The position numbers were made by a program, and so were the translations under genes. A stretch of 64,000 nt of DNA, taken from assembly GCA_965228475.1 (NCBI GenBank), contig OZ245817.1, positions 3,008,001 to 3,072,000 of the forward strand, read 5' to 3'. Positions 175-63,912 of this stretch are shown piece after piece (positions within the stretch are counted from its first letter, which is position 1; each line of letters opens with the position of its first letter). Source of the DNA: Myxococcota bacterium. GTDB taxonomy: Bacteria > Myxococcota_A > UBA9160 > JAFDDA01. A model generated the notes under the pieces. The model was not told where the DNA came from. It worked only from the letters and a program-made list of their open reading frames with translations, and ran no database searches.

Positions 175-1074
175 TCAGGAGCGGCGCCGCCGTGCGATCG
201 CGACCCCACCGACGACGGTCGCGGCGAAGACCGCGGCCAGCGCCGGCTCGGGGACCGGAATCGTGGCAGCGAGATTGTCCGCGACGATGTTGCCCGTCAC
301 GTTCAGGAACTCGAGCGAAACGATCTCGAGCTCCACGGACGTCACGTTCACGGCGCAGAAGAAGGTCTGGAGCTCACAGCCCGGTGCGGGCTGGCTGACC
401 GGGTCACCGGCCGGAACCTCGAAGCCCACGCCGGGGAGCGGCACCGTCAGCTGCGTGCCGACCTCGGTCGGTCCGCTGAAGAGCCGATCGAGCGTCCCGA
501 GGACCGGAATGTCCACGGGCGTTCCGCCGCCGAAGCTGAACGGCGCGATGTTGATGTCGACGATGCCGTCGGCGCTTCCGCTCGCCGTTGCGCCGAGCAC
601 GATACCGACCGAGGGGAAGATGGCGCTCCAGCCGCCCGGGCCGGGGACCGTCTCCGACGGGATCGGCGAGGTCGTGACCGGTGCGTCGAGCCCGAGCGTG
701 ATCTCGTCCACGTCGATGTTGAGGTCGAAGTTCAGGGTGCCGAGGATGCCGACGTCGATGCCGACGGTGCCGGTCACCGAGCCCGGGTTCGGGTTGCTGA
801 TGTCGATGTCGTTCAGCGTGACCGAGTTGTCCCAGCCGGGCGAGCCCCAGTCGGCCGTGATCGTGCCCTCGGGCGTTGCCGAGAGAGCGCCGGACACCAT
901 GCCGGTTCCATCGAACGTGCCGATGTTCGAGAACACCGTCACCTTGAGCTCACCCTCGATGTCGCCGCTCAGCGTGCTCGTGTTCAAGACGTTGTAGACG
1001 AGAGGCGCCGCGGTGGCCGTCCCGGCAAAACCGGCCGCCAGCGCGAACGCAAAGAGAGACTTCGTGATCCGCAT
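175..1074 (-). CDS. PEP-CTERM sorting-domain surface protein
   Basis: Signal peptide MRITKSLFAFALAAGFAGTATA; C-terminus VPEPALAAVFAATVVGGVAIARRRRS (PEP, TM helix, basic tail). Confidence 0.85.
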   Translation of the reverse strand: MRITKSLFAFALAAGFAGTATAAPLVYNVLNTSTLSGDIEGELKVTVFSNIGTFDGTGMVSGALSATPEGTITADWGSPGWDNSVTLNDIDISNPNPGSVTGTVGIDVGILGTLNFDLNIDVDEITLGLDAPVTTSPIPSETVPGPGGWSAIFPSVGIVLGATASGSADGIVDINIAPFSFGGGTPVDIPVLGTLDRLFSGPTEVGTQLTVPLPGVGFEVPAGDPVSQPAPGCELQTFFCAVNVTSVELEIVSLEFLNVTGNIVADNLAATIPVPEPALAAVFAATVVGGVAIARRRRS

Positions 1075-47954: not shown

Positions 47955-48614
47955 TCATGCGAAGAGGTGAGCCCGCCCTCCCTGGTGTTGCCTCGCGAGC
48001 GCGAACGCCGCGAAGCCCATGAGCAGCAGCGCGGCCGGCTCCGGCACCGCGAGCGGGGCGCTCCCCGGGGTCGGCGACGCCAGCACGATGAAGTCCGCCG
48101 CGTTGTCGCCGGTGTCGACGTTGGCGAAGCGGCGCGCGAGGCTCGATCCGGCGGCCGGATCGGGCGCGGCGCTGCCTTCTCCGGCGAAGATCTCTCCGGC
48201 TCCGAAGACGCCGTAGCCGAGGGCATCGAGCACCGAGGTCTCGCTCCGGAGCACCACCGAATCCGGACCGTTCTGGAAATCGAAGTTCGCGAGCAGGTCG
48301 GCCCCCGGCACCGCGGTGCCCCCGCCGCTCGCCGTGTCGGCGACGACGAAGACGCCGTCGGGCCCGATCGTGCCCGAGAGCGCGATCACCGGGCCGGCGG
48401 CGCCGTTCGAGCCGTTGATGCCCTCGAGAAAGAGCCCGTCGAGCGACGTCCCCGCAGCGCCGTAGAGCTCGACGAAGCCGAGGCCGTCGTCGCTCCCGGG
48501 GGCGTCGTAGAGGACTTCGGAAATCACGGGCATGGCCGCTGCGGGCAGGGGAAGGAGCCAGGCCAGGGCGAGCAGCGCGCGCGCTCCCGACCGGCCCATC
48601 GAGTGGAGGATCAT
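47955..48614 (-). CDS. Lamin-tail-domain protein with PEP-CTERM
   Basis: VISEVLYDAPGSD...FVELY, DTGDNAADF, PTPG, then VPEPAALLLMGFAAFALAR. Confidence 0.8.
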   Translation of the reverse strand: MILHSMGRSGARALLALAWLLPLPAAAMPVISEVLYDAPGSDDGLGFVELYGAAGTSLDGLFLEGINGSNGAAGPVIALSGTIGPDGVFVVADTASGGGTAVPGADLLANFDFQNGPDSVVLRSETSVLDALGYGVFGAGEIFAGEGSAAPDPAAGSSLARRFANVDTGDNAADFIVLASPTPGSAPLAVPEPAALLLMGFAAFALARQHQGGRAHLFA

Positions 48615-48649
48615 GTCGTTCTCCCGGGACACGGGGCGGGGTGAGCGAG

Positions 48650-58733: not shown

Positions 58734-58734
<1 letters not shown>

Positions 58735-60599
58735 TGCGCCGAGCCCTCCTCACGTCCGCGTTGCTGCTCGGCCTGCTGCACGGGGCCGGGCCGGGCGCTT
58801 TCGCGCAAACGCCGGGGGAACCCGCGGGCGAAAGCGCCGGCGCTCCGCTCGAAGCGCCCGACGTTCCGGCGGGCGAAGCGACCCTGCGCGGCCAGGTCAT
58901 CCACTCGGACCGGACGGACTCCGCGGCGGCCGGAATCGACGTCGTGCTCTACGCCCTCTCGAGCGGCCAGCAGCCCGGCGTGCGCCGCACGACGACCGAC
59001 GCGGAAGGCCGCTTCCGCTTCGAAGGCATCGCCGCCCGGCCCGACGTCGCGTACCTGCTCGGCGCGCGCTACGCCGGCCTGCCCTTTCCGGGCGACCGCA
59101 TCCTCTTCGAAGCGGGCGAGACCGAGCGGGTGGCCGAGATCCGCATCTCGGAGCCGACCGCCGACGCCTCCCAGGTCGAAGTGCTCCAGTCGAGCCTGCG
59201 GGTCGAGTGGCTCGGCGACCGGCTCGCCATCGGCGAAGTGCACCGCCTGAACAACCGGGCGAGCCGGGTCTACCACGTGCCCGAGGGCGAACGGGCCGGG
59301 CGCACGCCGCCCCTGCACGCCGAGCTGCCCGAGGGCGCCACGGGCTTCGCGATGCCCATGGGCCTGGTGCCCGAAGGCGCGCTGCGCGACGGCCGCGACT
59401 TCCGCTTCTGGGGGCCGCTCTACCCCGGCCAGCAGGAGATCTCCTTCCGCTACGAGCTGCCGATCGAGTCCGGCCTGGTGGGCCTCGAGAAGCGCTTCCC
59501 CTCGGCGGCGGGGCGGATCCGGGTGTTCGGGCGCGAGGGCGGCCCGCTCGAGGGCGCCGAAGGGCTCGAGCCGAAGGATGCCGTCGAGGACGAGGGCCAG
59601 CGCTTCGAGCCCTGGGAGCGCGAGAACGCACCGGCGGGCTTCGCGACGATCCTGCGCCTGCGCGTGCCGGAGTCGACCGCGGACCGCGAGGCGGTCGCGC
59701 TGGTCGAAAGCCAGATGATCCTCGAGTTCGACGACGTCGCCCTCTCGGTGAAGGAGCAGCACCAGCTCGAGGTCCCGGGAGAGGCCGCCGCACGCGCCAC
59801 CGGGAACGACCCGATCGTGGAGATCGCGCTGCCGGCGGCCGCCGAGGACGTGCGCTTCTCCGGGGACGCCGCGGCCCTCGGCCTCGTGCGCACGGACACG
59901 GGGATCGGCCTGCTCGGCCCCCTCGCGCCGGGCACCCACGCCGTCGGCCTCGCGTACACGCTCCGCAACGACGCGGGCAGCGTCGCCTTCTCGCGGCGTT
60001 TCGACCGGCGGCTCCCGCTGATGCGCGTGTACGTCGCCGACTCCGGCGTGGCCGTCGAAACGAACCGCCTGCACCGGCGGCGCCCCGTGCGCGACGCCGA
60101 CCGTACCTACCTGCTCTTCGAGGCCTTCGAGGTCGAGGGCGACGAGCTTCTCGAGTTCTCCCTGCGGCCGCTGCCGCCCCGCGCGAAGTCGCGGACGCCG
60201 GCCCTGGCGCTGGCCCTCCTGGCCGGCGTGGCGGGTGCGCTCTTCCTGGCGCGGCCCCTCGGCGCGGCCGTCGGCGCCGAGGACGAAGAAGACGCCGAAG
60301 CGGACGTCACCGCCCGGGAAGAACGCGAAGCGCTCTACGAATCGATCCGGGATCTCGAGCACGATCACGAGACCGGGAAGCTCGAGGAGGCCGACTACGA
60401 GGGGCTGCGGCGCGACCTCCGGGCCCGCGCCGCCGCGCTGCTGGCCCGCGAACGCGCCGCCCAGCCCGTAGCGGACGCCGCAGCCGGCGAGGGCCCGGCG
60501 GCCACCGTGACGTGCCACGCCTGCGGCGCCGAGATCGCCGCGACCGACCGCTTCTGCTCCCACTGCGGCGCAGCCCAGGCGCAGTCCCACTCGGCGTGA
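58734..60599 (+). CDS. Ccm-associated membrane protein: Ig-like domains, TM, CcmI-like helix, zinc ribbon
   Basis: Signal peptide, TTTDAEGRFRF, duplicated GPLxPG domains, IRDLEHDHETGKL, CHAC...CSHC. Confidence 0.7.
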
Positions 60600-61980: not shown

Positions 61981-62708
61981 CGCCTTCGACCCCTCCGATC
62001 GACGCCTCCGACAACGCCGTGGAACGGCTCGCCCGCGCCGCACAGCGCCCGACCGGCGTCGTGCTGGCGATGCTCGTCGTGTGGATGAGCTGGGTCGTCT
62101 GGAACGCGCCCGCCGACGTCACCCAGGGCGTCGTCTACAAGATCCTGTTCGTGCACGCGCCGGCCGCCTTCGCCGCCTACCTGGGCTTCATCCTCACCGC
62201 GATCGGCGGCGCGCTCTACCTCTGGAAGAACGACGAGCAGTGGGACCGCCTGGCGGTCGCCGCCGCGGAGGTGGGCGTCCTCTTCTGCACGATCAACATC
62301 GTGACCGGGCCGATCTGGGCCAAGGCGATCTGGGGCAAGCCCTGGGTCTGGGATCCGCGGCTGGTCGTGACCGCGCTGCTGTGGGTGACCTACCTCGCCT
62401 ACACCCTGCTGCGCGGCTTCTCGGAAGAAGGGCCGCGGGCGGCGCGCTTCGCCGCGGTCTACGGCCTGGCCGGCGTGCTGCTGATTCCGCTCAACTATTT
62501 CGCCATCGATCTGTTCCAGGGTCGCGGAATGCACCCGGAGAACCTCGAGCGCGGCAGCCTCGGCGTGGGGATCGGCCTCCCCTTTCTCGCCGGCACCCTC
62601 ACGACGCTCACGGCGTTCCTCTTCCTGCTCTGGCTGCGGCTCGACGTCGGTGGCCTGCGCGCGCGTGCGGACCAGCTCGACCGCGAGCGGTGGGAGGCGG
62701 AGGCGTGA
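61977..62708 (+). CDS. ccmC: Heme exporter CcmC
   Basis: FVHAP, WWD domain WAKAIWGKPWVWDPR, MHP. Confidence 0.9.
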   Translation: MTPSTPPIDASDNAVERLARAAQRPTGVVLAMLVVWMSWVVWNAPADVTQGVVYKILFVHAPAAFAAYLGFILTAIGGALYLWKNDEQWDRLAVAAAEVGVLFCTINIVTGPIWAKAIWGKPWVWDPRLVVTALLWVTYLAYTLLRGFSEEGPRAARFAAVYGLAGVLLIPLNYFAIDLFQGRGMHPENLERGSLGVGIGLPFLAGTLTTLTAFLFLLWLRLDVGGLRARADQLDRERWEAEA

Positions 62709-62833
62709 CCTGGGTCGTTGCTGCGTACGCGGTCGCCTTCGGCGGCGCCGCGCTCTACGGATTGCACCTCGTCCGCTCCCGATCGGCGCTCCGTAAGGCC
62801 TTGAGAGACGGGCGGAATCGAGATGGCAGTTGA
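62705..62833 (+). CDS. ccmD: CcmD-like small membrane protein, 42 aa
   Basis: GTG overlapping ccmC stop; WVVAAYAV TM followed by basic tail. Confidence 0.7.
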   Translation: MTWVVAAYAVAFGGAALYGLHLVRSRSALRKALRDGRNRDGS

Positions 62834-62859
62834 CAGCCACGGGCGGGGCTCGGTATAAC
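62830..62859 (+). promoter_or_regulatory. Strong sigma70-type promoter
   Basis: TTGACA (62830-62835)-N18-TATAAC (62854-62859); closest to consensus that I found in the window. Confidence 0.75.
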
Positions 62860-62865
62860 GGCAGA

Positions 62866-63340
62866 ATCTCGTAAGCTGTGGCTCTAGCTGGTTTTTTCAG
62901 CTCTCGATCGACGCGGTCGGCCCTCGCGAAAGTGGGGCTCGATCGTCGGAACGCAAGGCTTCTGGTATCCGCCCCCCACGGCGCTGCCCTGATCGCCAAC
63001 CGTGCCACCCGCGCCCTGCGCAGGAGGCCGGCCCGGGGGACGGCTCGCAGAAGCAAGGACTGTGAAAGTTCTTGCGCAAGCGATGGCCATCGCACCGGGT
63101 GAGGGTAGTTTGGTTCTCGATTCAAGCCTTCCGGATTCCCAACACACCCGCACGGCGGGACGTAACCTGTGTGTAACGGGGCCGCAGGGGCTCGAGGCAA
63201 CGGCGCGGAACGAGGGTGGTGCTCGTCCGGCCGGGGTGCCGTGGCACGGGGCTTGCCTTAGTACGGTCTGAATTCGCGAGGCCGAGCCCCCACCCACCAC
63301 CGGGGCGGACGTCGGGCTCGACCAGCCGGGAGGCATCCAA
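62866..63340 (+). ncRNA. Candidate large structured non-coding RNA / 5' leader of unknown class
   Basis: No credible ORF; multiple hairpins and nested long-range complementarities (see findings); boundaries inferred from promoter and next ATG. Confidence 0.6.
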
Positions 63341-63344
63341 GAGG

Positions 63345-63845
63345 ATGGCCAGCATGAAACGTGGCGTCGGATACTGCGAGAACACGGACTGCGAGGACTA
63401 CGCCAAGGGCGTGTTCCTGCTGAACCACGGCGACACCTTCTATTGCCCGCGCTGTCGCCAGCTCGGCAAGGTCGAGAAGGAGCGCGGGTTCTACACCGGC
63501 AACTCCGACGTCTTCAAGGAAGTCCGCGTCGAGTACAACTTCGACCCGATCAACGGCATCTACCGCGAGATCGCGATCGTGCGCGACGAGAGCCTCTGGG
63601 GCCGCAACAACGTCTACACGCTGCAGTCGCCGCTCATCAAGACCGAGAAGCGCGCCCTCAAGGTCGCCGAAGCGATCCTCGCCAACCTGAACCGCTACCG
63701 CGGCCTGCTGAACGGCGACGACATCCCGCGCACCACCGAAATCATCTTGTCCTTCGACGAGCCTTTCGACGAGTTCTCGCGGAAGCTCACCCAGCTCTCG
63801 AAGGAATGGGAGGCCAGCGGCCTGCGAGAGCAGCAGCAGCGCTAG
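63345..63845 (+). CDS. Hypothetical Cys4 (putative zinc-binding) protein, 166 aa
   Basis: CENTDC...CPRC; strong codon bias; alternative ATG at 63354. Confidence 0.8.
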   Translation: MASMKRGVGYCENTDCEDYAKGVFLLNHGDTFYCPRCRQLGKVEKERGFYTGNSDVFKEVRVEYNFDPINGIYREIAIVRDESLWGRNNVYTLQSPLIKTEKRALKVAEAILANLNRYRGLLNGDDIPRTTEIILSFDEPFDEFSRKLTQLSKEWEASGLREQQQR

Positions 63846-63875: not shown

Positions 63876-63912
63876 CGCCTCGCTGGATGGTCCAGCGGGG
63901 CGTTGGTGTTTC
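63876..63912 (+). terminator. Intrinsic terminator
   Basis: 12-bp stem CGCCTCGCTGGA/TCCAGCGGGGCG followed by TTGGTGTTTC. Confidence 0.65.

Follow-up and report, generated by a model that had tools for sequence, protein, structure and literature searches.

What is the function of a small four-cysteine protein whose gene stands behind several hundred nucleotides of leader, and is that leader an RNA partner of the protein or something else? The locus raising this question lies near the end of the 64,000-nucleotide stretch of Myxococcota DNA analyzed here (the window). An earlier note on this DNA had proposed that the gene is co-transcribed with a structured RNA, with which its product would form a ribonucleoprotein or through which it would regulate its own synthesis. 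The gene and its borders are as follows.

63345..63845, + strand: gene for a predicted cytoplasmic 166-aa Cys4 protein of pI 6.0, recognized by ORF translation, conservation and composition

63329..63338, + strand: conserved motif containing the Shine-Dalgarno sequence, 5' of the ATG; GGAGG(C/T)-N1-3-(T/C)CC in 55/78 loci

63876..63902, + strand: terminator-like hairpin (12 pairs, T tail imperfect) that separates the gene from the NUDIX-hisG-hisI run converging on it

Translation and comparison with 80 homologues bear out the ORF and the C-x4-C...C-x2-C signature read from it: the cysteines follow the pattern C11-x4-C16-x17-C34-x2-C37, and all four are retained in 80/80 homologues and are also invariant across 87 diverse ones. 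The protein had been rightly described as devoid of a transmembrane segment (peak 19-residue hydropathy of 0.52), unusual in composition and strongly constrained. Its Gly+Ala+Arg+Pro content falls at the 0.8th percentile of called genes, making it an outlier in this 70% GC genome, and the 80 homologues differ from it by a median of 43 synonymous codon changes vs. 6 amino-acid changes over 162 codons. Like its family (median pI 6.2), it is close to neutral, the conserved basic residues R6, K21, R61, K99, K102 and R103 being intermixed with the acidic residues E46, D81, E101 and E109.

The constraint coincides with a sharply delimited distribution. A single-sequence search recovered the gene in 48/48 genomes of the class to which the window belongs and in 0/203 others of the phylum, and a profile built from 87 sequences recovered it in 77/78 class genomes and 0/323 other genomes of the phylum, the one class genome devoid of a match being 84% complete. 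The class is probably UBA9160, which is renamed Vahlivitia in the accessible portion of a recent preprint (bioRxiv 10.64898/2026.07.10.737566). Identity to the window protein amounts to 91–96% in 42 of the 46 full-length class matches, the others reaching 86, 79, 77, and 73%. Across these 46 genomes, identity ranges from 84 to 92% for EF-Tu (20 genomes with a match) and from 77 to 93% for a 99-aa part of S12 (39 genomes with a match); hence, the Cys4 protein is more conserved than EF-Tu and S12 in 42/46 class genomes. Within this one bacterial class, the protein is nearly universal, ultraconserved and mostly encoded in a single copy. A second copy, divergent and partly truncated, occurs in several genomes of one family (L111:5137-5628, L112:3933-4388), and the two copies looked at have weak sigma54-like sites of their own. 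Many database entries exhibit N-terminal extensions of up to 280 aa that resemble mis-called starts, and a search for longer proteins returned four near-identical extended forms and no fusion to a tail protein, a result that is weak as proof of absence.

The surroundings of the gene are maintained, with ccmC on its 5' side in 63/70 loci and hisG on its 3' side in 51/64, the neighbors reaching a median identity of 36–69%. The gene is the sole one placed by the gene caller between ccmC and the convergent NUDIX gene. The claim that it is the only CDS between promoter and terminator stands, since the further leader ORFs of 74, 89, and 150 aa were rejected as genes in the absence of conservation, and a ccmD-like ORF of 42 aa overlooked by the gene caller (62705-62833) overlaps the -35 box of the upstream promoter, P1, with its stop codon. 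The terminator announced 3' of the gene corresponds to the hairpin listed above. Farther upstream, the ccm operon includes between ccmF and ccmA a 621-aa gene (58734-60599 of the window) that ends with a C-terminal Cys4 motif and has homologues in 65/80 loci.

The sequence separating ccmC from the Cys4 gene contains the following elements.

62830..62859, + strand: P1, sigma70-type promoter TTGACA-N18-TATAAC, a conserved pattern with a predicted function

62969..62977, + strand: C-rich element 3' of P1, in which C occupies 8 or more of 9 nt

63058..63079, + strand: motif A, imperfect palindrome TGYG-N10-CG(C/G)A, putative enhancer for a pilus-locus activator

63101..63122, + strand: motif B, palindrome GGAA-N6-TTCCCA, putative enhancer common to PEP-CTERM genes

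63158..63177, + strand: probable motif C of the GCA-N8-GCA type with an 11-bp repeat, weak here and placed by eye from its phase

63242..63256, + strand: P2, sigma54-type -24/-12 promoter TGGCAC-N5-TTGC, with a predicted start near 63268

The structured RNA proposed at 62866-63340 was not confirmed. Rfam searches at the gathering cut-off and at E<=10 returned nothing credible in the leader, the proposed transcript folds no better than its shuffles (z -0.60), and among 32 homologues z averages -0.43 over the initial 120 nt and -0.11 in the part 5' of the sigma54 site, vs. -0.16 in a CDS control. The sequence itself is unconserved beyond the closest of 80 relatives, the only one to align, and only patchily; leaders can be aligned solely within small groups, and the window's leader falls in none of these. 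In one subgroup of eight leaders, which excludes that of the window, a 19-pair stem has 93.8% of its cells paired (20/500 shuffles). Covariation in these eight sequences is not significant (49/500 and 147/500 shuffles; 6/63 pairs), at low power. A clade-limited 5' hairpin is possible in this subgroup. In four RNA datasets, contigs of relatives cover the CDS (543, 10, 306, and 132 contigs) and none covers the leader, as expected from the divergence of the leaders and from the selection of the datasets; nine RNA runs contained only 5% of the sequence words.

Short elements of the leader are more persistent. The C-rich element (at least 8 C in 9 nt) was found in 18/56 loci vs. 0/56 for the equivalent G-rich element and 10.7% of shuffles, and C-runs were also seen by eye in three shortened leaders described below; such an element could still act at the RNA level. 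A role of the C-run as an anti-Shine-Dalgarno sequence was rejected, its mean predicted pairing with the Shine-Dalgarno region being 0.05. In thirteen other leaders (L029, L043, L048, L052-L054, L057, L058, L061, L066, L077-L079), a second GGAGGC motif precedes the C-run, often together with a short C/G hairpin. An upstream ORF starting there was rejected by eye because start and frame vary, and the motif, which the window does not carry, is a possible RNA-level site. Directly after P1, a TAAG...T-tract (62870-62897) recurs by eye in many leaders and has the look of a degenerate IHF site.

Both promoter motifs are conserved far beyond the sequence that surrounds them. The P1 pattern occurs in 63/78 loci, 300–550 nt upstream of the sigma54 motif, vs. 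1/78 on the antisense strand and 0/68 far upstream, and was recovered in 48/53 held-out loci; it was overlooked by a consensus scanner that demands a final T. Its conservation implies that a leader of 385–750 nt can be transcribed. The co-transcription from a single promoter assumed earlier did not take into account P2, whose GG-N10-GC -24/-12 element lies 69–292 nt 5' of the ATG in 79/80 loci (one short locus being dropped), vs. 2/80 on the antisense strand, 1/71 far upstream and 1.8% of shuffles, and is found in 53/55 held-out loci. The genome encodes an RpoN scoring above cut-off, together with roughly 22 sigma54 activators. A transcript from P2 would have a 5' UTR of only ~77 nt.

Upstream of P2, motif A was detected in 73/78 training loci and motif B in 68/78. 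Since the motif matrices were trained on these same loci, held-out metagenome loci were tested, namely 55 of 81 after removal of 9 duplicates, 2 divergent and 15 short loci; of the 53 in which the sigma54 site was recovered, motif A was found in 44 and motif B in 36. The motif C family, phased at -72/-83/-93/-103, occurs in 70/78 loci with a shuffle match rate of 18%, and in the window its matrix selected a different, out-of-phase site. Proteins bound to one face of DNA require spacing by whole helical turns, a constraint that RNA helices do not impose. Measured from the sigma54 site, the positions of the three motifs fall into steps of ~11 bp (periods of 11.3, 11.4, and 10.7; jitter p 0.002, a value overstated by the relatedness of the genomes), and the coherence of the motif distances relative to P1 is low. 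Similarly, the spacing from A to B is 31–34 in 40, 42–44 in 19 and 52–53 in 2 of 64 loci, and 35–41 in none; in the held-out set it is 31–32 in 8, 42–44 in 21, 35 in 1 and of another value in 2 loci (n=32). The sigma54 site is thus preceded, ~80–250 bp away, by helically phased sites of the activator type; in all, three phased DNA motifs and two conserved promoter motifs precede the Cys4 gene.

Motifs A and B are not confined to this locus. In the genome of the window, motif B reaches at least 13 bits at 13/131 sigma54-like sites, its own included, vs. 0.37% of random windows. Where motif B scores at least 11 and a called gene follows, 7/13 sites precede PEP-CTERM-type genes vs. 5/72 others; reciprocally, a sigma54-like site accompanies 16 of the 96 PEP-CTERM-like genes recognized by pattern, and motif B is present at 12 of these 16. 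Motif B is also found 5' of an ECF sigma factor gene. PEP-CTERM genes are expanded genome-wide, with 54 TIGR02595 matches besides the 96 found by pattern, two lying in the window (178-1074 and 47958-48632, both on the - strand). A minor-pilin operon headed by a 24-bit sigma54 site has motif A 86 nt 5' of that site; the operon stands behind a run of pilB, pilT, pilC, kinase, and activator genes (names read from their sequences). Among the 10 of 25 class loci having the sigma54 site of this operon, 9 carry motif A (control 0/10). Motif A was also noticed at the gene of a 110-aa membrane protein, between the sigma54-like site at its head and a small XRE-type HTH gene (G000:C1:2180590-2181395).

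Natural deletions separate the long leader from the gene. Three small genomes (2.2–2.8 Mb) lack the sigma54 site and motifs A and B and have kept the gene and P1, the latter only 167–195 nt 5' of the ATG, which leaves a leader of <200 nt. Their proteins are the most diverged (73–79% identity), and they retain rpoN; a PEP-CTERM search gave 13 matches in one of them and none in the other two. The loss of the long leader with retention of the gene indicates that the former can be dispensed with. The sigma54 module is likewise missing from the six phage copies tested; the expectation that homologues would share the long leader was thus contradicted on both sides.

Taken together, the long stretch 5' of the gene is, judging from its sequence features, a DNA control region with two promoters, and not a structured RNA partner. 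P1 would provide basal, sigma70-type expression, and P2 sigma54-dependent induction by enhancer-binding activators looping to the polymerase, the activator at A being that of the pilus locus and the activator at B that of the surface-protein regulon; we assign this reading a probability of about 0.9. These two inputs would wire the gene into the pilus and surface-protein program.

This type of promoter logic is known, the motif sequences being new. The closest precedent is the PEP-CTERM box linked to PrsR and sigma54 (Haft et al., 2006; PMC1569441), described in the accessible part of that article as a 17-nt motif ending in TTTACA and followed by a 32–92 nt spacer; one PEP-CTERM gene is RpoN-dependent according to the available part of a second article (PMC9850573). 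As in that system, so far as these portions describe it, PEP-CTERM genes have a palindrome-like enhancer 5' of a sigma54 -24/-12 site, and the exosortase EpsH is present (two above cut-off in the genome). By contrast, motif B ends in TTCCCA and starts 90–178 nt before the sigma54 site, a search for PrsR (TIGR02915) found none above cut-off in the genome (best score 418 vs. 502.6), and the Cys4 protein is cytoplasmic and devoid of a PEP-CTERM tail.

The protein itself belongs to an unassigned family, as had been stated: Pfam, NCBIfam, and PHROG searches yielded no family at cut-off (no PHROG match and one sub-threshold NCBIfam match), and no paper on it appeared among the articles listed in literature searches. 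A structure model of high confidence (pLDDT 94) consists of a beta stalk bearing the ribbon, a three-stranded sheet and a helix, an extended segment and C-terminal helices. Its strands 57-67, 72-80, and 89-94 followed by helix 101-115 agree with the beta-rich segment and basic helix foreseen in the earlier note, the conserved basic residues K99, K102, R103, and K106 lying on one helix in the model. No helix-turn-helix was found in the protein. Two segments have recognizable relatives.

63375..63455, + strand: Cys4 zinc-ribbon segment, C11-C37, with an eS31-like sequence

63501..63695, + strand: beta-hairpin/strand/helix domain, residues 53-117, phage tail hub/tip-like by structure comparison

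The predicted zinc ribbon finds support in the invariant Cys4 and in residues 14-40, which resemble the ribbon of eS31 (PDB phmmer E 4e-4; profile E 7e-4), and it would bind zinc. The top 20 PDB sequence matches are eS31/S27ae chains, PF01599 is matched at E<=0.1 by 11/87 members (best member E 0.0028), and the likeness explains the "S27AE" ribosomal label of some JGI database entries. The ribbon shares with eS31 (S27a/S27ae) a similar G-x-F-L-x-N-H-G-D-x-F-Y-C stretch, but its PF01599 score is 16.8 bits (17.5 for the best of six proteins) vs. a gathering cut-off of 22.3. It also differs by its C-x4-C-x17 cysteine spacing, 120 further residues, near-neutral pI and bacterial and phage distribution, with neither a ribosomal operon nor a ubiquitin fusion. 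In structure comparison, the whole model aligned its ribbon with many generic ribbons at Z 2.3–3.5, and eS31 chains were absent among the rows listed; a likeness to RbpA is trivial (Z 2.4–2.9, ribbon only).

Residues 53-117 superpose on one domain of phage tail hub/tip proteins such as lambda J, T5 pb3, Mu gp44, and the gp27-like hub of VgrG (PF13550), at Z 5–7.2 over 57–67 residues, all below the Z 8 caution line of the tool. Individual superpositions gave Z 6.8 (rmsd 1.8, 58 aligned) for these residues, Z 7.0 (rmsd 1.7, 57 aligned) for the C-terminal model and, at best, Z 7.2 (rmsd 3.6, 66 aligned). All 16 chains with Z>=5 are tail hub/tip proteins of phages and injection systems, a result seen again with the C-terminal model. 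Sequence support is weak, PF13550 being matched at E<=0.1 by 3/87 members and the family profile giving a probability of 0.4% against a single lambda J segment; moreover, hub proteins comprise 300–950 residues, whereas here one small domain is found in 166 aa, among ccm and his neighbors. Foldseek searches of PDB and BFVD returned nothing at E<=0.001, and the ESM Atlas returned two Myxococcota clusters (0.99 and 0.96), a viral cluster (0.84), and named clusters at <=0.81. A predicted homodimer with two Zn (score 0.02, mark 0.42) carries no weight either way. The pairing of an eS31-like ribbon with a hub-like domain is an unusual combination.

Homologues are also carried by phages. Eight IMG/VR contigs encode one; six of them measure 184–298 kb and the remaining two 33 and 74 kb, and two of the eight look like the same region. 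The two copies measured directly share 66 and 51% identity with the window protein. An INPHARED phage search with the Cys4 protein gave no match, and the accessible part of a myxophage preprint (10.64898/2026.09.14.751636) reports few viruses recovered for this class. A quickly built, unrooted tree places six viral copies and 74 unlabeled divergent proteins on one side of a branch, apart from cellular copies (SH-aLRT 82), a pattern that suggests a large viral radiation. A metagenome scan returned 79 close (>=85%) loci and 1 divergent locus out of 80, so the viral origin of these 74 proteins is read from the tree only, and a cluster look-up of ten divergent homologues gave no useful names. Small non-structural genes, and not tail genes, surround the phage copies examined, and the sigma54 site was found in 0/6 of these loci. 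IF-1 adjoins the gene in 2/6 loci, both with the same gene order and apparently of a single lineage; elsewhere, a PIF1 helicase lies upstream in two loci, a deaminase is found in one and a peptidase M24 near one. Three related large phages also share a conserved 63-aa ORF 5' of the gene (L120:5189-5377, L121:5201-5389, L122:1164-1352), whose L120 copy has neither a Pfam match nor a homologue in the host genome, and an apparent tRNA cluster was seen by eye in another phage locus (L119:1225-1653).

Several readings of the protein can be weighed against these observations. Small lineage-restricted regulators such as WhiB, GcrA, MucR, Lsr2, and TraR are carried by phages. The Cys4 protein resembles WhiB, GcrA, MucR/Ros, Lsr2, DksA/TraR, and RbpA, all of them small, often metal-binding, clade-wide, highly conserved and stand-alone, several with phage copies, but it has no sequence match to any of them. 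By analogy with these cases, the stand-alone gene, multi-input promoter, class-wide retention and phage copies lead us to favor, tentatively and at somewhat less than even odds, a class-specific global transcription regulator. Contacts with RNA polymerase, sigma or DNA would be made by its zinc ribbon and by the basic side of helix 101-115, and phages carrying their own copy, free of the sigma54 module, would redirect host transcription. The near-neutral pI of 6.0, the lack of a helix-turn-helix, the triviality of the RbpA likeness and sequence leads pointing to eS31 and tail hubs count against it. That the protein forms a ribonucleoprotein with, or autoregulates through, a structured RNA from P1 is very unlikely. 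The conservation of P1 and the stem of the eight-member subgroup are compatible with such an RNA, and the strand-specific C-rich element keeps it alive, but the Rfam and folding results, the homologue z values close to those of the CDS control, the insignificant subgroup covariation and the three genomes with leaders of <200 nt argue against it. The upstream region behaves as DNA, with motifs that are spaced by DNA helical turns and recur before unrelated sigma54 promoters.

The ribbon may alternatively bind rRNA or the small subunit, making the protein a ribosome-associated or translation factor, accessory and specific to the class, that phages would carry as a translation gene. The eS31 matches, a conservation above that of EF-Tu and S12, the adjacent IF-1 and the nearby peptidase M24 of a third locus point that way; we regard this reading as unlikely, the eS31 likeness being confined to ~27 residues below the Pfam cut-off and partly driven by cysteines, the protein not being basic and its gene lying outside any ribosomal operon under a sigma54 enhancer, with both IF-1 loci looking like one lineage and four other loci having different neighbors. 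The S10-spc ribosomal cluster of the genome (G000:C1:1646555-1652205) lacks L3, L24, and S14 at their usual places, and all three are encoded elsewhere; a role as stand-in for a lost ribosomal protein was rejected, as these three, the ones checked, were found in 5/5 genomes and are not replaced by the Cys4 protein. Equally doubtful is a protein-interaction hub derived from phage and domesticated in the ancestor of the class, which would serve as an adaptor or scaffold in pilus/envelope control or proteolysis and would not act on nucleic acid. The hub/tip matches of the model, the grouping of six viral copies with 74 divergent homologues and the pilus and surface genes as regulon partners agree with it, but the Z scores stay below 8, the lambda J profile probability is negligible, an unrooted tree gives no direction of transfer, and the phage copies examined are not among tail genes. 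A scenario joining these elements, in which a phage-origin gene with a tail-hub-like domain and an eS31-like ribbon was domesticated by the class ancestor into a highly constrained core transcription or translation factor reading pilus and surface signals, a step taken over by the divergent copies of large phages, appears distinctly improbable.

Whichever way it acts, the presence of the Cys4 protein throughout one class and in 0/323 other genomes searched in the phylum probably points to a core process restricted to a large uncultured class. The phage copies constitute natural variants of the protein and a marker linking large phages to these hosts. Finally, two candidate enhancer motifs are gained, one for a PEP-CTERM regulon without canonical PrsR and one for a pilus locus.
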